Positions 1-23,432 of a DNA stretch of 23,432 bases are shown here, in pieces. Position 1 is the first letter of the stretch; each line of letters opens with the position of its first letter. The position numbers and the translations under genes are program-made. A model generated the notes under the pieces. It worked only from the letters and a program-made list of their open reading frames with translations, searched no databases and was not told where the DNA came from. Origin of the DNA: a virus (lineage: Duplodnaviria; Heunggongvirae; Uroviricota; Caudoviricetes); IMG/VR virus record IMGVR_UViG_2531839127_000024, positions 1-23,432 of that record; one strand, written 5' to 3'.

Positions 1-996
1 TTATGGACGCATTATGGACATTCCTGACACCGGGTTAAGAGTCACAGCATCTTGTAAGAAATCCGGTGCAAAGTGTGCGTAGGTCATAGTTTGCTGAATG
101 TTAGAATGACCCAGGATGCGCTGCAATGTGATTATGTTACCTCCATTCATTATAAAATGTGTGGCAAATGTATGCCTCAAAACATGCACTGCCTGTCCGT
201 CAGGTAAATCGGGTTTTACTTCCCTGAGAGCATTGCGCACTTTGTAGTAACTGGCATTAAAAAGCCTGCCTGAATTTTTGGTCTTGATCCGTTTAATCAG
301 GTCCTGCGAAACGGGAATTGTCCTGCGCTTTCCGTTTTTAGTTTTCATAAACGTAACCATCTGGTTAATGATGTGTTCAGCTTTCAAATTAGACACTTCA
401 CTCCAGCGTCCACCAGTAGAAAGGCAGACCAGAGTTGCATTTAACTCATCACCATCAAGCATGGATAACAGCCGCGTAATCTCTTCACTGGACAAAAAAG
501 CCATTTCAGTAACAGCTTCACGTAACCGCTTAACCTCACGGAACGGGTTGTGAGAGTGGTATTCACCGGCGTCAATTAACTTGGTGAACATCCCGCTCAT
601 TATTGCCAGATGCCGATTTACGCTGGCTGGTTTAAGACCATCGTTCATCATTACAACGCGATAATCAGTTATCGTTTTCTTTGTTAGCTGGTCAGCTCTG
701 GACACTCCCATTTCTGCAAATTTGGCGATTATTGTCGTCAAACGCCCCCGTTCAATATTTCCACGCTCATGTGATTTTCCGTGATATATCCACCATCTGC
801 CTAACAACTCTGTAAGAGTTCGGCGGTCGGCTGGCTTCTCCAGCCACTCTTTGTTGTGGTAGTTAACCAGCACATGACGTTCGAATGCTTGAGCTTCACC
901 TTTAGTTTTAAATTTCCGCCTGATACGTTTTCCATCTGCACCCTGCGGTCTGACGTCCACTTCATAACGACCATCATCGAGCTTTTTAATAGACAT
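1..996 (-). CDS. int: Tyrosine integrase (P2 Int family), 331 aa
   Basis: ORF with ATG at 996 preceded by GGAGGG; C-terminal catalytic motifs LRHTFATHF and TYAHFAP (H-x-x-R ... Y) typical of tyrosine recombinases; sits next to the repressor as in P2. Stop codon is at positions 1-3, so att lies left of the window. Confidence 0.92.
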   Translation of the reverse strand: MSIKKLDDGRYEVDVRPQGADGKRIRRKFKTKGEAQAFERHVLVNYHNKEWLEKPADRRTLTELLGRWWIYHGKSHERGNIERGRLTTIIAKFAEMGVSRADQLTKKTITDYRVVMMNDGLKPASVNRHLAIMSGMFTKLIDAGEYHSHNPFREVKRLREAVTEMAFLSSEEITRLLSMLDGDELNATLVCLSTGGRWSEVSNLKAEHIINQMVTFMKTKNGKRRTIPVSQDLIKRIKTKNSGRLFNASYYKVRNALREVKPDLPDGQAVHVLRHTFATHFIMNGGNIITLQRILGHSNIQQTMTYAHFAPDFLQDAVTLNPVSGMSIMRP

Positions 997-3618: not shown

Positions 3619-5893
3619 AGCCTCCGGGCGTTTTGTCCCTCCGTCAGCATTTGCTGCAGGCACCGGTAAGGCGTTTACCGGTGCTTATGCATGGAACGCG
3701 CCACGCGAGGCCGTCGGGCGCGAAAGACTCCTTACACGTGACGAGATGCGTCAGGTGCAAGGTGTTTTATCCACGATTAACCGCCTGCCTTACTTTTTGC
3801 GCTCGCTGTTTACTTCACGCTATGACTACATCCGGCGCAATAAAAGCCCGGTGCACGGGTTTTATTTCCTCACATCCACTTTTCAGCGTCGTTTATGGCC
3901 GCGCATTGAGCGTGTGAATCAGCGCCATGAAATGAACACCGACGCGTCGTTACTGTTTCTGGCAGAGCGTGACCACTATGCGCGCCTGCCGGGAATGAAT
4001 GACAAGGAGCTGAAAAAGTTTGCCGCCCGTATCTCATCGCAGCTTTTCATGATGTATGAGGAACTCTGCGATGCCTGGGTGGATGCGCATGGCGAAAAAG
4101 AATCGCTGTTTACGGATGAGGCGCAGGCGCATCTGTATGGTCATGTTGCTGGCGCTGCACGTGCTTTCAATATTTCCCCTCTCTACTGGAAAAAATACCG
4201 TAAAGGACAGATGACCACGAGGCAGGCATATTCTGCCATTGCCCGTCTGTTTAACGATGAGTGGTGGACTCATCAGCTTAAAGGCCAGCGTATGCGCTGG
4301 CATGAGGCGTTACTGATTGCTGTCGGGGAGGTGAATAAAGACCGTTCTCCTTATGCCAGTAAACATGCCATTCGTGATGTGCGTGCGCGCCGCCAGGCAA
4401 ATCTGGAATTTCTTAAATCGTGTGACCTTGAAAACAGGGAAACCGGCGAGCGCATCGACCTTATCAGTAAGGTGATGGGAAGTATTTCTAATCCTGAAAT
4501 TCGCCGGATGGAGCTGATGAACACCATTGCCGGTATTGAGCGTTACGCCGCCGCAGAGGGTGATGTGGGGATGTTTATCACGCTGACCGCGCCGTCAAAG
4601 TATCACCCGACACGTCAGGTCGGAAAAGGCGAAAGTAAAACCGTCCAGCTAAATCACGGCTGGAACGATGAGGCATTTAATCCAAAGGATGCGCAGCGTT
4701 ATCTCTGCCGCATCTGGAGCCTGATGCGCACGGCATTCAAGGATAATGATTTACAGGTCTACGGTTTGCGTGTCGTCGAGCCACACCACGACGGAACGCC
4801 GCACTGGCATATGATGCTTTTTTGTAATCCACGTCAGCGTAACCAGATTATCGAAACCATGCGTCGCTACGCGCTCAAAGAGGATGGCGACGAAAGAGGA
4901 GCCGAGCGAAACCGTTTTCAGGCGAAACACCTTAACCGGGGCGGTGCTGCGGGGTATATCGCGAAATACATTTCAAAAAATATCGACGGCTATGCACTGG
5001 ATGGTCAGCTCGATAACGATACCGGCAGACCTCTGAAAGATACTGCCGCGGCTGTTACTGCATGGGCGTCAACGTGGCGCATCCCGCAATTTAAAACGGT
5101 TGGTCTGCCGACAATGGGGGCTTACCGTGAACTACGCAAATTGCCTCGCGGCGTCAGCATTGCTGATGAGTTTGACGAACGCGTCGAGGCTGCACGCGCT
5201 GCCGCAGACAGTGGCGATTTTGCGTTGTATATCAGCGCGCAGGGTGGGGCAAATGTCCCGCGCGATTGTCAGACTGTCAGGGTTGCCCGTAGCCCGTCGG
5301 ATGACGTTAACGAGTACGAGGAAGAAGTCGAGAGAGTGGTCGGCATTTACGCGCCGCATCTCGGCGCGCGTCATATTCATATCACCAGAACGACGGACTG
5401 GCGCATTGTGCCGAAAGTTCCGGTCGTTGAGCCTTTGACTTTAAAAAGCGGCATCGCCGCGCCTCGGAGTCCTGTCAATAACTGTGGAAAGCTCACCGGT
5501 GGTGATGCTTCGTTACCGGCTCCCACACCTTCTGAGCACGCCGCAGCAGTGCTTAATCTGGTTGATGACGGTGTTATCGAATGGAATGACCCGGAGGTCG
5601 TGAGGGCGCTCAGAAGCGCATTAAAACACGGTCTGAGAAGACCAAACCGTCAGCAAAGAAACGGAAACCCGTTAAAACCGCATGAAATAGCGCCATCGGC
5701 CAGACTGACCCGGTCAGAACGATTGCAAATTACCCGTATCCGCGTTGACCTCGCTCAGAACGGTATCAGGCCGCAACGATGGGAGCTTGAGGCGCTGGTG
5801 CGTGGCGCGACCGTAAATTATGACGGGAAAAAATTCACGTATCCGGTCGCTGATGAGTGGCCGGGATTCTCAACAGTAATGGAGTGGACATGA
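3608..5893 (+). CDS. A: Rolling-circle replication initiator A (761 aa)
   Basis: From ATG 3608 the protein starts MAVKASGRFVPP and is exactly 761 aa, matching P2 gpA as I recall it; contains HWHMMLF (HUH-like) motif. Track start at 3566 is TTG. Confidence 0.9.
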   Translation: MAVKASGRFVPPSAFAAGTGKAFTGAYAWNAPREAVGRERLLTRDEMRQVQGVLSTINRLPYFLRSLFTSRYDYIRRNKSPVHGFYFLTSTFQRRLWPRIERVNQRHEMNTDASLLFLAERDHYARLPGMNDKELKKFAARISSQLFMMYEELCDAWVDAHGEKESLFTDEAQAHLYGHVAGAARAFNISPLYWKKYRKGQMTTRQAYSAIARLFNDEWWTHQLKGQRMRWHEALLIAVGEVNKDRSPYASKHAIRDVRARRQANLEFLKSCDLENRETGERIDLISKVMGSISNPEIRRMELMNTIAGIERYAAAEGDVGMFITLTAPSKYHPTRQVGKGESKTVQLNHGWNDEAFNPKDAQRYLCRIWSLMRTAFKDNDLQVYGLRVVEPHHDGTPHWHMMLFCNPRQRNQIIETMRRYALKEDGDERGAERNRFQAKHLNRGGAAGYIAKYISKNIDGYALDGQLDNDTGRPLKDTAAAVTAWASTWRIPQFKTVGLPTMGAYRELRKLPRGVSIADEFDERVEAARAAADSGDFALYISAQGGANVPRDCQTVRVARSPSDDVNEYEEEVERVVGIYAPHLGARHIHITRTTDWRIVPKVPVVEPLTLKSGIAAPRSPVNNCGKLTGGDASLPAPTPSEHAAAVLNLVDDGVIEWNDPEVVRALRSALKHGLRRPNRQQRNGNPLKPHEIAPSARLTRSERLQITRIRVDLAQNGIRPQRWELEALVRGATVNYDGKKFTYPVADEWPGFSTVMEWT

Positions 5894-6378
5894 TGGCAAA
5901 AATTCACGAGGTAAAGCTGCACGCAAAATATTTCGACCTTGTACTGGAAGGAAAAAAACGCGCAGAGTTTCGGAAAAATGACCGTAATTATGAGCGCGGG
6001 GACACGTTGATTTTGCATGAATGGGTGCAGGGTGTGTTTACGGGGCGAAAGGTTGAAGCCCGGATAACAGATGTTACTGACCTGTCAGACTGGCTGGAAG
6101 ATTATGTCTTGCTAAGTATTGAGCTGCTTAATACGGGCGCATATAAGATTGTGAACTGGAAAGAACTTAGTGAACGTGGTCTGGTATTCAGAATTAATCA
6201 TGAAATTATGCATCAGCTCGGCCTTGCTGTTATGTATGAACCAGAGACGGGCTGTCTGGCGGGGCAGTGGTTGCTGCGGATGGGATATGGAACTATTCAG
6301 ATGAACAGGTGGAGCGTGCAAAGCAAAACGGGTGGCTTGGATAATGCACAGAATACCAGGCGAGATACCGCACCATAA
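5890..6378 (+). CDS. ASCH/DUF3850-like protein (P2 orf91-like N-terminus) with about 70-aa C-terminal extension
   Basis: ATGATG at 5890-5895 overlaps the A stop; GGAG RBS at 5881; N-terminus MAKIHEVKLHAKYFDLVLEGKKRAEFRK is ASCH-like. 162 aa versus 91 aa for P2 orf91. Confidence 0.65.
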   Translation: MMAKIHEVKLHAKYFDLVLEGKKRAEFRKNDRNYERGDTLILHEWVQGVFTGRKVEARITDVTDLSDWLEDYVLLSIELLNTGAYKIVNWKELSERGLVFRINHEIMHQLGLAVMYEPETGCLAGQWLLRMGYGTIQMNRWSVQSKTGGLDNAQNTRRDTAP

Positions 6379-6550: not shown

Positions 6551-6773
6551 AGAACGCCGCCAGTCGTGAAACTTGTTTTCAGGGCTGGCGGGGTTGAACA
6601 ACGAGCGTAGCGAGGCGTTAGTTGACAGACATATTTTTACTGCGTTGGTGCCGGTTTTTGACGGTTGAAAGGAGTTAGGTTGGAGAGCTAACAACTTACA
6701 AATATTCAAAAGTAAGCATCCTGTTGCTAACATGAGGTCGATTTTTTATGTGGATGATGCAAAAAGGATAGCT

Positions 6774-7505
6774 ATGGATACTATAATCGCTTTTCTATCA
6801 CTCGCTTTTTTCGTTGCTTTCTTCATCGGGTTAATCAAGCCATCACTGGTGCGAATGCCAAACCGCAAACGTGCAAGTGCGGTTTATCTCGGAGGAGGTT
6901 TTGTATTGAGCATAATTGGTTCAATACTCTATCCAACAGAAAAAAGCCAGCCAGTTGATAAAACTGAAACATCAACCGTTGCAGAACATAAAGTCCAAAA
7001 AACATTCGAATATGGTGAAAAAACACTCAAGGAATATCGGAACGAGTCAAAGAAAACACGACACGATATTGTGAATAGTTACATTGATTTTAAGGAAGTT
7101 CCAGCCACCGCGTCAGATGCGTTTTATGCCTGCATGAGTGAATATACATTTACCAAAGATGATGAGTTGAAACTCGGTGATGTTCTTGGGTGGTGCTTTA
7201 ATGATTATGAAAATGACCCGAATTCACTAAACAATAAAATCAATCTTGATACATTTCAGAGTAATTTTAGTGGTTGGGATGGTTCTTATCGTCCATTGGA
7301 AAAACTAATTAAAGATAATATGAACGATGATTCATCTTATAAACATGTATCAACGGTATATCATCTGGTTTTGAATAAAGACCCGCATGCCATTGTGAAA
7401 ACCACGTTTCGCGGAACTAATGCTTATGGCGGAGTGGTGAAACAGACGATTGCTGCGCGTGTTGATATAAAAACTGGTAAGGTGATATCAATCATAGATA
7501 ATTGA
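6774..7505 (+). CDS. Cargo protein 1: unrecognised membrane protein, two N-terminal TM helices plus about 180-aa soluble domain (243 aa)
   Basis: AAAGGA RBS 5 nt upstream of ATG 6774 (in-frame alternative ATG 6732); hydrophobic segments IIAFLSLAFFVAFFIGLI and VYLGGGFVLSIIGSILY separated by basic loop RMPNRKRAS; AT-rich codon usage unlike the phage backbone. Confidence 0.7.
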   Translation: MDTIIAFLSLAFFVAFFIGLIKPSLVRMPNRKRASAVYLGGGFVLSIIGSILYPTEKSQPVDKTETSTVAEHKVQKTFEYGEKTLKEYRNESKKTRHDIVNSYIDFKEVPATASDAFYACMSEYTFTKDDELKLGDVLGWCFNDYENDPNSLNNKINLDTFQSNFSGWDGSYRPLEKLIKDNMNDDSSYKHVSTVYHLVLNKDPHAIVKTTFRGTNAYGGVVKQTIAARVDIKTGKVISIIDN

Positions 7506-7614: not shown

Positions 7615-8397
7615 ATGAAAATTATAAACCAACTTAAGAAGTTTGATAAGAAAAGAACGCCAGATGATGGCCGTATTAGTTTGTTATATGAAAACGCGAT
7701 TAAGTATGATATGTACTCTGTATATATTAAAGATAAAAATGATACAGAATACCTCTTTGACTGTTTGGTTGATGGGAAGATAAAGGCTTTTAAATGGGAT
7801 GATGAGGAGCGTAGATTTCATATAAGTTCATGCTTGGATATTTCTGAGGTTACGCCTGATTCTTTTTTTGGTGTTTACTACTACCGTGCGCATGAGTTGC
7901 GATTTAACTCTTTAAATGATTTAACATTTTTAAGGGAGTTGTTCTTTAGAGTAAAGTCTAATTATGAAAATATAAAGTTTAGTCGTGAAAAATATATTTA
8001 TCGACAGCAAAAAAAAGAAATAACTGATGTGATGTTTGTTCTCTCAACGATTATAAGAATGTATCGTGAATGGGATGCTCAAACTGTGTTTAGTGAGTTT
8101 TCAATAATGACCGAAGTCGCTGGTAGTTTATGGGTATACCATGACGATAAAAACAGGATGCGTAAAGAGCTTCGTTTATGCCTGAATTCTCTTGTTCAGA
8201 ATGGAGATCTTGTTGAAACAAGTAGTGGATTTAGGCCAACAGGAAAGGCACTGAACACAATATCTACATTCAATAAAGATGAGGTGCGGTACAGAGAGAA
8301 TTTGAGTACTCAGAAGAAAATGTTTTGGGCTACTTTTTTCGCAGCAGTCGGCGGCGTAGGAAGTATGATTGCAGCTATAATAGGGCTTCTAAAATGA
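7615..8397 (+). CDS. Cargo protein 2: unrecognised protein with cytoplasmic N-domain and single C-terminal TM helix (260 aa)
   Basis: ATG ORF; very AT-rich; C-terminal hydrophobic segment FWATFFAAVGGVGSMIAAIIGLL preceded by KK; no catalytic motif recognised. Confidence 0.7.
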   Translation: MKIINQLKKFDKKRTPDDGRISLLYENAIKYDMYSVYIKDKNDTEYLFDCLVDGKIKAFKWDDEERRFHISSCLDISEVTPDSFFGVYYYRAHELRFNSLNDLTFLRELFFRVKSNYENIKFSREKYIYRQQKKEITDVMFVLSTIIRMYREWDAQTVFSEFSIMTEVAGSLWVYHDDKNRMRKELRLCLNSLVQNGDLVETSSGFRPTGKALNTISTFNKDEVRYRENLSTQKKMFWATFFAAVGGVGSMIAAIIGLLK

Positions 8398-19885: not shown

Positions 19886-20489
19886 TTCGCGACTGCTGCC
19901 GACCGGCTCATCACTGCTTGAAGTTGCCGCCGCAAAAGCCTGTGCGGAAATTGAAAAAACGCCGGTCAGTATTCGTGAGCTGTGGAACCCGGATACCTGT
20001 CCGGCAAATCTGCTGCCGTGGCTGGCGTGGTCATTTTCGGTTGACCGCTGGGATGATAAGTGGCCGGAAGCGACAAAACGCGCTGTTATCCGCGATGCGT
20101 ATTTCATTCACTGCCATAAGGGCACTATTGGTGCGATTCGCCGTGTGGTGGAGCCACTCGGCTATCTGATTGAGGTGAGGGAGTGGTGGCAGCTCAACGA
20201 GGAGCCGGGGACGTTCCGTATCGTTGTCGGCGTGCTTGAGCAGGGTATTACCGAGGAAATGTATCAGGAGCTGGAGCGCCTCGTTGCTGATGCAAAACCG
20301 GCAAGCCGCCATCTGACGGGACTGGCTATCAGTTTAAGTACAACCGGCAACATTTTTGCCGGTGCGGGATGCTATCACGGCGACGCCCTGACGGTTTATC
20401 CCTACACCCCGGAGGCCATTATTGTCGGAGGGGATTATTTCCCGGCCTCGGCCATTCATTTAATTGATAACCTGAGAGTAAACGCATGA
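19878..20489 (+). CDS. I: Baseplate/tail protein I (203 aa)
   Basis: GGAGG RBS; overlaps the J stop and the H start; synteny with P2 I. Confidence 0.85.
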   Translation: MSDSRLLPTGSSLLEVAAAKACAEIEKTPVSIRELWNPDTCPANLLPWLAWSFSVDRWDDKWPEATKRAVIRDAYFIHCHKGTIGAIRRVVEPLGYLIEVREWWQLNEEPGTFRIVVGVLEQGITEEMYQELERLVADAKPASRHLTGLAISLSTTGNIFAGAGCYHGDALTVYPYTPEAIIVGGDYFPASAIHLIDNLRVNA

Positions 20490-21898
20490 CAGTGAAATAC
20501 TACGCCATTCTGACTAATCAGGGCGCAGCACGGCTGGCTAACGCGACGATGCTCGGCAGTAAGCTGAATCTGACGCAAATGGCCGTTGGTGATGCGAATG
20601 GTGTCTTGCCGACACCAGACCCGGCACAGACAAAACTGATTAACCAGAAACGCATCGCGCCGCTGAATCTTCTGAGTGTTGACCCGAACAACCAGAGCCA
20701 GATTATTGCGGAGCAAATCATCCCTGAGAACGAGGGCGGATTCTGGATCCGTGAGATTGGGCTTTATGATGATGAAGGCGTACTCATTGCGGTGGCGAAC
20801 TGCCCGGAAACGTACAAACCGCAGTTGCAGGAAGGCAGCGGTCGTACCCAGACTATCCGCATGATTCTGGTTGTCACGAATACCGAAGCCATCACGCTGA
20901 AAATCGACCCGTCGGTGGTACTGGCGACCCGTAAATACGTGGATGATGAAGTCCTGGAATTAAAGCTGTATGTGGATGACCAGATGAGAAACCACATTGC
21001 CGCACAGGATCCTCATACCCAGTATGCACAGAAACATAATCCGACATTTACCGGAGAACCAAAAGCGCCGACGCCTGCCGCAGGAAATAACACCACGCGG
21101 ATTGCGACCACTGCGTTTGTACAGGCCGCTATTACCGCTCTGATTAACGGTGCGCCTGCCACGCTGGATACACTGAAAGAAATTGCCGCAGCCATTAACA
21201 ATGACCCGAAATTCAGCACCACCATTAACAATGCGCTGTCAGGTAAGCAGCCACTGGATGAGACGCTGACTCATTTGAGTGGGAAGGATGTTGCCGGTCT
21301 TCTCGCATACCTTGGTTTGGGAGAAGGCTCTGCATTACCTGTTGGTGTCCCTGTTCCGTGGCCTTCAGCCACTCCGCCAACAGGCTGGCTGAAATGCAAT
21401 GGTGCGGCTTTTTCTGCTGAAGAATACCCGGAACTGGCAAAGGCTTACCCGACAAATAAATTGCCAGATTTACGTGGTGAGTTTATTCGTGGCTGGGATG
21501 ACGGGCGAGGGATTGATGAGGGGCGCATACTTCTCAGTTGTCAGAGTTTTGCTTTCCAGGACCATGCGCACGCTCTGCCAACCGGAGTGGGTAATCCGTC
21601 AGACCAGATGGAAAGCGATATCTATGCGGTTTTCAACGATGTACCAGAAATACCCAGTGCGGCCCTGAGTCCATCGTCGTCAGGAACATCATGGGACGCA
21701 ACCAGTAGGGCAGACAAGGTAATCCTTTATCGCAAGGACCTTTCACCAACAGGTAATAACAACGCAATAGCGACCGGATTACCACCATTCAGGACTTACA
21801 GGGCATCGACCTCAGACGGTGTTACTCATCCGTCCGTGTACGCATCTGAAACCCGTCCGCGCAACATTGCATTTAACTACATCGTGAGGGCTGCATAA
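20486..21898 (+). CDS. H: Tail fibre protein H (470 aa): conserved N-terminus, shared shaft segment, and collar-type receptor-binding tip
   Basis: N-terminus is P2 H-like (GGFWIREIGLYDDEGVLIAVAN); C-terminal tip has tail-collar-like motifs (LPDLRGEFIRGWDDGRGID, ETRPRNIAFNYIVRA). Residues encoded by 20879-21326 are duplicated in inverted orientation downstream. Confidence 0.9.
   Translation: MTVKYYAILTNQGAARLANATMLGSKLNLTQMAVGDANGVLPTPDPAQTKLINQKRIAPLNLLSVDPNNQSQIIAEQIIPENEGGFWIREIGLYDDEGVLIAVANCPETYKPQLQEGSGRTQTIRMILVVTNTEAITLKIDPSVVLATRKYVDDEVLELKLYVDDQMRNHIAAQDPHTQYAQKHNPTFTGEPKAPTPAAGNNTTRIATTAFVQAAITALINGAPATLDTLKEIAAAINNDPKFSTTINNALSGKQPLDETLTHLSGKDVAGLLAYLGLGEGSALPVGVPVPWPSATPPTGWLKCNGAAFSAEEYPELAKAYPTNKLPDLRGEFIRGWDDGRGIDEGRILLSCQSFAFQDHAHALPTGVGNPSDQMESDIYAVFNDVPEIPSAALSPSSSGTSWDATSRADKVILYRKDLSPTGNNNAIATGLPPFRTYRASTSDGVTHPSVYASETRPRNIAFNYIVRAA
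20879..21326 (+). repeat. Left arm of 448-bp perfect inverted repeat (inside H)
   Basis: Reverse complement of 22985-23432 is identical at every block I compared (position p pairs with 44311 minus p); truncated by the window end, so true length is at least 448 bp. Confidence 0.9.
21300..21325 (+). other. Candidate 26-bp serine-invertase crossover site (hix/gix/cix-like), left
   Basis: TTCTCGCATACC-TT-GGTTTGGGAGAA: two imperfect 12-bp inverted half-sites of the TTnTCnnAAACC type around a central dinucleotide, ending 1 bp inside the inner boundary of the inverted repeat. Confidence 0.6.
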
Positions 21899-22503
21899 TG
21901 GCGAAAGCAAAATTAAACAGTGCGTTTATTGCCACCGTGGCAGGAGAAATCACTGTGTACAACTACCGGGGCGACACCCGCGAATACATATCCTCATCGG
22001 TTGAGTATCTGCCTGTGGGGGTGGGTATTCCTGCCAATTCCTGTACCGATGCGCCCGGCACACATAAGGCTGGTTATGCAATCTGCCGTTCTGCAGATTT
22101 TAACTCATGGGAATATGTGCCAGACCATCGCGGTGAAATTGTCTATGGCATCGAAACGGGGGAATCAAAAGAAATTACTGTGCCGGGGGATTACCCTGAA
22201 AATACGACCACTTTTGCCCCATTAACGCCATACGATAAATGGGATGGTGAGAAATGGGTAACAGATACCGAGGCACAGCATAGCGCCGCAGTAGATGCAG
22301 CAGAAGTACAGCGCCAGTCTCTGATTGATGCTGCTATGGCTTCCATCAGTCTGATTCAGCTGAAATTGCAGGCCGGACGTAAACTGACGCAGGCAGAAAC
22401 AACCCGCCTTAACGCTGTGCTGGATTACATTGACGCGGTGACGGCAATAGATACCAGCACCGCGCCTGATATTATTTGGCCTGTATTCCCTGAGACTGAT
22501 TAA
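21898..22503 (+). CDS. G: Tail fibre assembly chaperone (Tfa/gpG-like), 201 aa
   Basis: ATG overlaps the H stop; N-terminal VYNYRGDTREY...LPANSCTDAP is typical of lambda Tfa/Mu U-type chaperones. Confidence 0.85.
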   Translation: MAKAKLNSAFIATVAGEITVYNYRGDTREYISSSVEYLPVGVGIPANSCTDAPGTHKAGYAICRSADFNSWEYVPDHRGEIVYGIETGESKEITVPGDYPENTTTFAPLTPYDKWDGEKWVTDTEAQHSAAVDAAEVQRQSLIDAAMASISLIQLKLQAGRKLTQAETTRLNAVLDYIDAVTAIDTSTAPDIIWPVFPETD

Positions 22504-22669
22504 CCTCAATCAGTATTGGTTCGCCTTTCTCATTAATTGTTAGCTCCATGCCCTGAGGAATTTCTGTCATAGTAAAAAACCAGTTGTCCTCCGGTAATTC
22601 AATAGCCCCGGTCACGTCATGAAGACCGGGGATTACTTCAGTCAAAGTAACTGGATTAAACAGGCGCAC
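22472..22669 (-). CDS. Putative short alternative tail fibre assembly chaperone (65-86 aa depending on start)
   Basis: Minus-strand ORF immediately downstream of the alternative fibre tip; GGAGGG RBS before GTG at 22669 (track start 22732); 3' end overlaps G convergently by 32 nt. No Tfa motif recognised, so the call is positional. Confidence 0.4.
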   Translation of the reverse strand: MRLFNPVTLTEVIPGLHDVTGAIELPEDNWFFTMTEIPQGMELTINEKGEPILIEVNQSQGIQAK

Positions 22670-23432
22670 AATAAACCCTCCATGAAAAAGCATTTGATGA
22701 TGGTCTGCCGTCGTACATCTGGCAGCGGGCATAAAAGCCGGTATTTGTTACCTGATCATCCACGATCATTGAAACGTGAACATTATTAGGTGTGCTCTCG
22801 TAATCCGTTCTTATTCTTTCTGCGATACTGATAAAACGTGAAAGTTTAGGCAGTGCAATTGGGTAAACGACTTTAGCCAGTCCATTATCATTAGATCCAC
22901 CGGTTCCAAATACTTCTATTGCACCATCTGACCAGCGTACCCATGCACCATTGGCATTAGCTCCTCGCTGAATGACATATCTGGCTTCTCCCAAACCAAG
23001 GTATGCGAGAAGACCGGCAACATCCTTCCCACTCAAATGAGTCAGCGTCTCATCCAGTGGCTGCTTACCTGACAGCGCATTGTTAATGGTGGTGCTGAAT
23101 TTCGGGTCATTGTTAATGGCTGCGGCAATTTCTTTCAGTGTATCCAGCGTGGCAGGCGCACCGTTAATCAGAGCGGTAATAGCGGCCTGTACAAACGCAG
23201 TGGTCGCAATCCGCGTGGTGTTATTTCCTGCGGCAGGCGTCGGCGCTTTTGGTTCTCCGGTAAATGTCGGATTATGTTTCTGTGCATACTGGGTATGAGG
23301 ATCCTGTGCGGCAATGTGGTTTCTCATCTGGTCATCCACATACAGCTTTAATTCCAGGACTTCATCATCCACGTATTTACGGGTCGCCAGTACCACCGAC
23401 GGGTCGATTTTCAGCGTGATGGCTTCGGTATT
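22656..23432 (-). CDS. Alternative tail fibre gene or gene segment, partial; 5' end beyond the window
   Basis: Minus-strand ORF whose first 149 codons in the window are identical to H (inverted repeat) and then diverge into a different 110-aa C-terminal tip; no in-frame stop up to the window edge. Confidence 0.75.
   Translation of the reverse strand, partial: NTEAITLKIDPSVVLATRKYVDDEVLELKLYVDDQMRNHIAAQDPHTQYAQKHNPTFTGEPKAPTPAAGNNTTRIATTAFVQAAITALINGAPATLDTLKEIAAAINNDPKFSTTINNALSGKQPLDETLTHLSGKDVAGLLAYLGLGEARYVIQRGANANGAWVRWSDGAIEVFGTGGSNDNGLAKVVYPIALPKLSRFISIAERIRTDYESTPNNVHVSMIVDDQVTNTGFYARCQMYDGRPSSNAFSWRVYCAPV
22985..23432 (-). repeat. Right arm of 448-bp perfect inverted repeat (truncated by window end)
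   Basis: See left arm; identity stops exactly at 21326/22985. Confidence 0.9.
22986..23011 (-). other. Candidate 26-bp serine-invertase crossover site (hix/gix/cix-like), right
   Basis: TTCTCCCAAACC-AA-GGTATGCGAGAA read on the plus strand; inverted copy of the left site, again at the inner repeat boundary. Confidence 0.6.

Follow-up and report, generated by a model that had tools for sequence, protein, structure and literature searches.

In the G segment of phage Mu (Gin; S-U / S'-U') and the C segment of phage P1 (Cin), a serine invertase of the Din family swaps the C-terminus of the tail fibre together with its cognate assembly protein and thereby changes the host range, with P1 carrying repeats of 0.6 kb inside its cix sites. 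The fibres of pyocins are accompanied by a Tfa-type chaperone of roughly 150 amino acids (aa), not of 65 aa. Inversion of the tail-fibre C-terminus has been measured in P2-like prophages of Escherichia coli, with one two-state and one three-site, shufflon-like locus in the enteropathogenic E. coli (EPEC) strain E2348/69 (Goldberg et al. 2014, PMC4272514). Here, we analyse IMG/VR virus record IMGVR_UViG_2531839127_000024 from position 1 to 23,432 (this whole stretch of 23,432 nucleotides (nt) is referred to as the window), and propose with a probability of about 0.85 that its right end contains an invertible tail-fibre cassette of a P2-like prophage which is an orthologue of the P segment of e14 with its invertase Pin and which resembles the Mu G/Gin and P1 C/Cin systems. 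As a host-range switch, the system is of a known, ordinary kind; one of its two modules, consisting of a fibre tip here called tip B and a helper of 65 aa here called orf65, has never been characterised.

The window covers the left and central part of the prophage, leading from the integrase via replication, head, lysis and baseplate genes to V-W-J-I-H, with the tail-fibre gene H following the gene order of P2. Residues 1-150 of H match Pfam Phage_tail_fib (E 3e-62), and the constant part of the fibre is expressed in either orientation of the switch. The open reading frame (ORF) then runs in frame through the left of two crossover sites, where it codes for LLAYLGLGE, and, having reached ...LAYLGLGE at residue 280, continues into a tip of 190 aa, tip A. 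On the minus strand, an ORF enters from the end of the window, likewise passes through ...LAYLGLGE and continues into tip B, so that the sequence which the original prediction had described as shared by two tips is indeed present ahead of both. The crossover site consists of 26 bp with an imperfect 12-2-12 dyad symmetry around a 2-bp core TT. Two inverted copies are found in the window, where none would be expected by chance, and a search of the window for a third copy, as in a layout of the shufflon type, returned nothing. The interval 21327-22984, to which the two tips had been assigned, coincides exactly with the 1658-nt spacer of a perfect inverted repeat, the arms of which measure 448 nt (20879-21326 / 22985-23432, 100% identity).

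When compared with the e14 sites of E. coli K-12, which read CTCTCGAAAACCTTGGTTTGGGAGAA inside stfP and TTTTCATAAACGTTGGTTTGGGAGAA adjoining pinE, the window site differs from the former at 3 of 26 positions, and the right-hand site of complete relatives (23CRST001, NCTC9064 and locus L003) is identical to the latter, the outer half-site on the right in complete genomes being TTTTCATAAACG. The cassette of E. coli 23CRST001 (L001), comprising tip A, its assembly gene tfaA, the small ORF and tip B, is 100% identical throughout to that of the window, and H is fused in frame to tip A; to the right of the cassette come a 188-aa 'recombinase family protein' and the tail sheath gene, in this order. 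This 188-aa recombinase of the relatives is 86% identical to PinE, and all complete relatives examined have an invertase of 164-197 aa as the immediate right-hand neighbour of the cassette. In NCTC9064 (L002), the cassette is inverted, with H and tip B forming one coding sequence (CDS) of 463 aa and with a tip A fragment and tfaA directed away from H. That the two tips are alternative C-termini of one fibre gene is thus borne out by complete E. coli genomes, in which both in-frame fusions occur. Comparison of the four junctions in 23CRST001 and NCTC9064 further places the point of exchange at the central TT, outer and inner half-sites being swapped reciprocally, which is what a serine invertase would give.

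Opposite orientations were also found in pairs from within one strain series, namely 61 and 64 as well as DG341-1 and DG351-2, where the records of a pair match at the same coordinates or are of the same length, and in IMG/VR isolate contig L008 an H constant region that is 100% identical to the window over its last 421 nt is joined to tip B. Altogether, the tip B module is present in 116 of 5426 complete E. coli genomes (about 2%), and an only approximate count of annotations places tip B within a 'phage tail protein' CDS, and hence in the orientation that is expressed, in 23 of the 60 genomes sampled. A census of junctions as a measure of orientation was discarded as confounded, as tip A is also found in combination with many other cassettes and the constant regions are divergent. 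With respect to the features of the Din family, the locus and its relatives thus comprise two inverted sites of about 26 bp, both orientations together with exchange at the core, and alternative 3' parts that continue H in frame and are accompanied by helpers.

According to the proposed mechanism, a serine invertase, coded just right of the cassette in complete relatives, would recombine the two inverted 26-bp sites at the central TT, and the resulting flip of 1658 nt would swap the end of H together with the downstream helper, without moving the promoter of the late operon or the constant part of H. The late operon would then be read through constant H into whichever module faces it: the orientation seen here would give H-tipA (collar/gp37-like) with TfaA, the other one H-tipB (a gp53/R-pyocin-like lectin foot) with orf65. 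A population of lysogens would consequently release two kinds of particle that are expected to bind different surface receptors, such a difference being likely because the tips differ in fold and family. An invertase would presumably act in this strain as well, and the two tips may confer alternative host ranges by analogy with Mu, P1 and carotovoricin. A scan of the cassette for promoters and terminators gave nothing above shuffled expectation that would express the silent module. The features of the locus are compiled in the following table.

Table. Coordinates of the integrase and of the features of the putative tail-fibre switch in the window
Feature	Position	Strand	Description or evidence
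Integrase	1-996	-	Pfam Phage_integrase
Tail-fibre gene H	20486-21898	+	470 aa
Constant N-terminal and shaft part of H, residues 1-271	20486..21299	+	Phage_tail_fib, P2 gene order
Left crossover site	21300..21325	+	TTCTCGCATACC-TT-GGTTTGGGAGAA
Tip A, 190-aa receptor-binding C-terminus, currently joined to H	21326..21898	+	Collar, PDB, PHROGs
TfaA, 201-aa tail-fibre assembly protein, cognate chaperone of tip A	21898..22503	+	Caudo_TAP
orf65, presumed helper of tip B	22472..22669	-	65 aa, GTG start at 22669, MRLFNP...
Tip B, 109-aa alternative receptor-binding C-terminus, lectin-like beta-sandwich foot, silent here	22656..22985	-	
Right crossover site	22986..23011	-	Inverted copy of the left site
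Outer right repeat arm	23012..23432	-	Inverted copy of H codons about 132-272, outside the switch proper

Tip A has a collar domain and one HxH motif; its middle is variable, and its conserved end reads ...NIAFNYIVRAA. The collar-type motifs announced for the plus-strand tip are present as LPDLRGEFIRGWDDGRGID and ETRPRNIAFNYIVRAA, with Pfam Collar (PF07484) matching H residues 287-334 at 55.6 bits against a cutoff of 24 (E 5e-15), although the length of the tip had to be corrected from 191 to 190 aa. Its matches in PDB comprise a short tail fibre (9cuy, E 4e-17), the T4 gp37 tip (2xgf, E 3e-16) and gp12 and span the collar region as well as the C-terminal ...NIAFNYIVR motif, and in PHROGs it matches phrog_523/3100 (tail fibre). 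The first roughly 60 residues and the cognate Tfa are widespread in P2-like and lambdoid phages, and residues about 65-150 in the middle are allele-specific. Two close alleles (window 21326-21895 and NCTC9064 4018-4590) differ by seven nonsynonymous and no synonymous substitutions, all of them in residues 65-150, which in this small sample of two hints at diversifying selection on the receptor-binding surface. TfaA is a member of Caudo_TAP (PF02413; residues 78-199, 106 bits against a cutoff of 22.1, E 2e-30) including the C-terminal domain, matches phrog_105 (E 2e-96), and has a ratio of nonsynonymous to synonymous substitution rates (dN/dS) of 0.12-0.17.

Tip B starts after the minus-strand ...LAYLGLGE with ARYVIQRGANANGAWVRWSDGAIEVF and ends in ...CAPV (stop 22656-22658). 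As had been predicted, it is unrelated to tip A and shorter, having 109 aa instead of the estimated 110 or so, and BLASTP between the two tips revealed no detectable similarity (best E 0.26). Its sequence found no match in PDB and scored below the threshold of Pfam Gp53-like_C (PF21882; 14.8 bits against a cutoff of 24.9, E 0.042); only the comparison of folds gave matches, the confident model of tip B having the fold of AP22 gp53 (4mtm) and of the R-pyocin foot. The homology searches and structure predictions that had been suggested as checks therefore set a collar/gp37-like tip A against a gp53/R-pyocin lectin-like foot in tip B. Homologues with identities down to 54% exist in Serratia, Enterobacter, Salmonella and Xenorhabdus, and dN/dS amounts to 0.09-0.12 in comparison with E. 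coli alleles (dS about 0.3) and to 0.16 in comparison with Kosakonia; tip B is under purifying selection and is not a remnant. In a P2-like prophage of Kosakonia sacchari (L015/L016, 2851-4186), an H of 387 aa, the C-terminus of which is 64% identical to tip B, is followed by an orf65 homologue only and then by the sheath gene, with neither an invertase nor a Caudo_TAP gene, and the former crossover site is still visible as ...LLKYLGLAEA. This prophage is a natural 'locked B' state, and because tip B and orf65 have their counterparts there as the sole fibre module, the pair looks like a self-sufficient unit.

Since its relatives begin with MRLFNP..., the small ORF after tip B, the longest possible reading of which is 86 aa, is taken to start at the GTG as orf65. 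Its family comprises 267 members at E <=0.001, all of 57-66 aa, from E. coli, Enterobacter, Salmonella, Citrobacter, Cronobacter, Hafnia, Kosakonia, Xenorhabdus and Erwinia, and dN/dS of orf65 is 0.16-0.28. In every locus examined, a homologue directly follows the tip-B homologue on the same strand with an overlap of 14 nt, which suggests translational coupling; in the Kosakonia prophage, which has no other Tfa, it holds the position of gene G, and there is no room downstream of it for a Tfa C-terminal domain. A link to Tfa proteins came only through exhaustive HMMER searches: residues 1-57 of P0206 (131 aa, Caudo_TAP E 3e-20) align with the orf65 family (hhalign 99%, BLASTP E 1e-15), and the full-length Tfa P0213 (147 aa, E 8e-14) is linked to orf65 in the same way. 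BLAST revealed no resemblance of orf65 to either TfaA or the 147-aa Tfa of phage pro483, 0 of 24 family members match Caudo_TAP at E up to 1, and in PHROGs orf65 corresponds only to phrog_5400, function unknown. A further candidate homologue of the ORF (22475-22669, minus strand), the DUF285/spiralin-domain protein P0191 of 2709 aa, was rejected, as its summed HMMER E value of 2e-32 accrues over 15 tandem repeats of about 78 aa, each about 25-29% identical with a pairwise E of at least 0.002, and reflects summed weak resemblance, not homology.

According to the summary of North et al. 2019 given in PMC9608196, the N-domain of Tfa binds the fibre tip and the helical C-domain trimerises. By its sequence, orf65 is the counterpart of the variable, fibre-binding N-domain, and it is not filed as a member of Caudo_TAP. 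The claim that each tip is followed by its own putative chaperone hence stands for tip A with its 201-aa Caudo_TAP protein, whereas tip B is followed by a homologue of the Tfa N-terminal domain only, which presumably serves as its helper. It is a tentative idea, to which we give somewhat less than even odds, that orf65 represents a class of minimal one-domain tail-fibre helpers in which the fibre-binding N-domain alone is sufficient for a foot of the gp53/R-pyocin type, and orf65 may also stay attached to the fibre and form part of its receptor-binding tip.

Two further arrangements of module B were encountered. In a P2-like prophage of E. coli W (L011, NC_017664.1, 2069-3514), in which H continues into tip B, the orf65 gene carries an IS3 insertion at its 5' end, just past the stop of tip B, an arrangement also present in records labelled DH5alpha, HBUT-L and B-766. 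In E. coli UC4224 (L012, 1524-3532), module B is combined with a different A module, in which an H of 580 aa is followed by a hypothetical protein of 88 aa and no Caudo_TAP gene; further small, unannotated fibre helpers may therefore exist.

The original prediction had itself raised the possibility that tip B is degenerate, and one might indeed suppose that the minus-strand module of tip B and small ORF is the decaying, non-functional leftover of an old fibre and that only tip A is effective, given that orf65 has just 65 aa and lacks the conserved Tfa C-terminal domain, that tip B is merely a 'hypothetical protein' in the annotation of most genomes, that its close relatives are absent from deposited phages, and that an IS3 element has inserted at orf65 in E. 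coli W. However, tip B is intact and retained down to 54% identity in other genera, and dN/dS values of 0.09-0.16 for tip B and of 0.16-0.28 for orf65, at a dS of about 0.3-0.5 and with neither frameshifts nor stops, are hard to reconcile with decay. In Enterobacter, Salmonella, Serratia, Hafnia, Xenorhabdus, Kosakonia and Erwinia, with identities as low as 54-60%, both families are, in addition, constant in length and motifs, tip B is in the expressed orientation in the 23 of 60 genomes mentioned above and is the sole fibre tip of the Kosakonia prophage, and its confident model matches known receptor-binding feet. A remnant is accordingly very improbable and already largely refuted. The role of orf65 is another matter: instead of being a folding chaperone, it could be a retained structural accessory that aids receptor binding in the style of Mu Tfa or T2-type gp38, or it could have an unrelated role beside a foot that folds by itself. 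Retention of the fibre-binding domain without the trimerising helices would be in keeping with the former, as would the observation that the Tfa proteins of Mu and Ur-lambda stay on the mature fibre (PMC9608196). The synteny of tip B and orf65, their 14-nt overlap and the gene-G position in Kosakonia fit a chaperone and a retained adaptor equally, however, and homology to Tfa N-domains makes an unrelated function unlikely, so that on balance we consider this alternative doubtful.

With respect to the switch itself, several observations weigh against an invertible cassette with two functional modules. Within the window, no serine invertase gene adjoins the cassette and there is no genuine right flank, because the source contig (APYK01000117.1, 74,204 nt, from GCA_000357165.1; without a difference from the window in the 12,947 nt compared) stops 2 nt past the window end; as all complete relatives examined do have an invertase, its absence is most simply a sampling gap and not biology. 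No relatives of tip B with more than 36% identity are found among 50,697 deposited phage records (three records have 36% or less), and orf65 has no match of its own in Pfam, NCBIfam or PDB, lacks the C-terminal domain, considered the conserved core of Tfa function, and is weakly modelled, with one of five models reaching a predicted local distance difference test (pLDDT) score of 75 and a search with the model finding no structural neighbours. Finally, the right arm of the inverted repeat, to which the minus-strand ...LAYLGLGE belongs and which is cut by the end of the draft contig, is a 448-nt perfect copy of H that is seen in no complete genome. This arm is probably an assembly fold-back, in which reads from the flipped orientation joined tip B to the constant part of H, and if so it would be indirect evidence for switching in the sequenced culture. 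The 448-nt repeat might instead be real, either as a second, head-to-head copy of H brought about by recombination of prophages at the crossover sites, or as a long repeat like that of P1 which would permit inversion by RecA independently of an invertase. Head-to-head junctions of P2-family prophages through the cassette do exist, in the complete genome CP182374.1 and in IMG/VR isolate contig L008, and the break of one sister assembly at position 20407 hints at a second related prophage. In these real cases, however, identity between the two H genes reaches only about 70-80%, whereas the right arm here is 100% identical to the left one and halts at a draft-contig end. Four sister assemblies break within the cassette (window positions 21951, 22086, 22790 and 22898) and many public contigs with orf65 are only 1.2-1.7 kb long, a scatter that is typical of reads in mixed orientation; moreover, not one of the 5426 complete genomes covers at least 80% of the structure from H to the right arm, and the repeats of genuine prophages and phages measure 21-31 nt, followed in prophages by an invertase. 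A real long repeat is therefore unlikely, and the invertible cassette with short crossover sites remains the preferred explanation: the long inverted repeat made the feature visible, yet is probably an artefact of assembly.

Taken on their own, all five draft assemblies (L019-L023) break at different positions in or just after the cassette, and the additional break of one sister assembly at 20407 lies just upstream of H, where it may reflect a second related P2-like prophage in the strain. As a practical lesson, switches of this kind break short-read assemblies, and fold-back contig ends mimic long inverted repeats.

Exchange of cassettes between prophages is suggested by a comparison of window positions 21300-23011 with 4150-5861 of 23CRST001 (L001): the cassettes are 100% identical, whereas identity drops to only about 72-80% in the constant regions of H, and the change from divergent to identical sequence takes place at the crossover site, with one mismatch in the outer half-site and none from the core inwards. 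Cassettes thus seem to change from one prophage backbone to another at the recombination site. In NZ_CP182374.1 (L025, 2118000-2167000; junction in L005, 3343-5253) and in L008 (2807-5500), two different P2-family prophages lie head-to-head through the cassette in the order ...V-W-J-I-H-tfa / tfa'-H'-I'-J'-W'-V'..., the partners being a 186-like prophage with CI/CII and a P2-like prophage with C/Cox/int beside pflA, the H of which is 98% identical to that of the window. This junction looks like an inversion of the chromosome between prophages with breakpoints at the crossover sites, or like a misassembly. Pin-type invertases may use these sites to recombine different P2-family prophages, with cassettes changing their backbone and large chromosomal inversions as results.

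Elsewhere in the window, two plus-strand ORFs of 257 aa (6732-7505) and 260 aa (7615-8397), which have no match in Pfam or PADLOC, lie between the replication gene and the portal gene at what we take to be the accessory and defence hot spot of P2. They are preceded by a plus-strand ORF of 173 aa (5857-6378) with DUF3850/ASCH and DUF7415 domains.

The switch described here is textbook bet-hedging of phage host range by DNA inversion, to which the case adds a compact and delimited module made up of a 109-aa tip and a 65-aa helper, unannotated and absent from deposited phage genomes. If orf65 suffices to fold or complete a foot of the lectin type, this would refine the model of Tfa chaperones as two-domain proteins and would offer a very small cassette for the retargeting of P2-type phages and R-type tailocins. 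Novelty lies chiefly in the one-domain relative of Tfa and in the hints of exchange between prophages at the crossover sites.

Amongst known systems, the Pin system of e14 (stfP-tfaP / tfaE-stfE-pinE) is similar in that the invertase of the relatives is 86% identical to PinE, that the sites differ at 3 of 26 positions or are identical, and that a constant fibre part is followed by two convergent modules of tip plus helper with overlapping 3' ends. However, e14 is a defective remnant with two helpers of the Caudo_TAP type and its own invertase, whereas the cassette analysed here resides in an apparently complete P2-like prophage, one of its modules consists of the tip B foot and the 65-aa helper, and the window itself lacks the invertase. 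Mu G and P1 C follow the same logic of a constant N-terminal fibre part with a swapped C-terminus and helper, but the backbone here is P2-like and both Mu modules use a full-length Tfa; in contrast to P1, the genuine repeat has a length of about 27 nt only, and the long one, probably an artefact, is located outside the sites. The P2-like prophage loci of EPEC E2348/69 (PMC4272514), in which coexisting orientations were measured in cultures, are loci of this kind from the same phage family and species, and the fibre inversion of carotovoricin Er can be grouped with them. As for the individual components, tip B has a sequence identity of only 15-19% to the R-pyocin feet (6cl6, 6cu2, 6cxb) and the AP22 gp53 tip (4mtm). 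Tip A shares its collar region and the C-terminal NIAFNYIVR with the T4 gp37 tip (2xgf) and with gp12 and other short tail fibres, but when compared to gp37 it is much shorter, has one HxH motif and no long needle, and is allele-specific in its middle. TfaA, in turn, is a full Caudo_TAP member like the Tfa chaperones of the lambda gpK / P2 G family.

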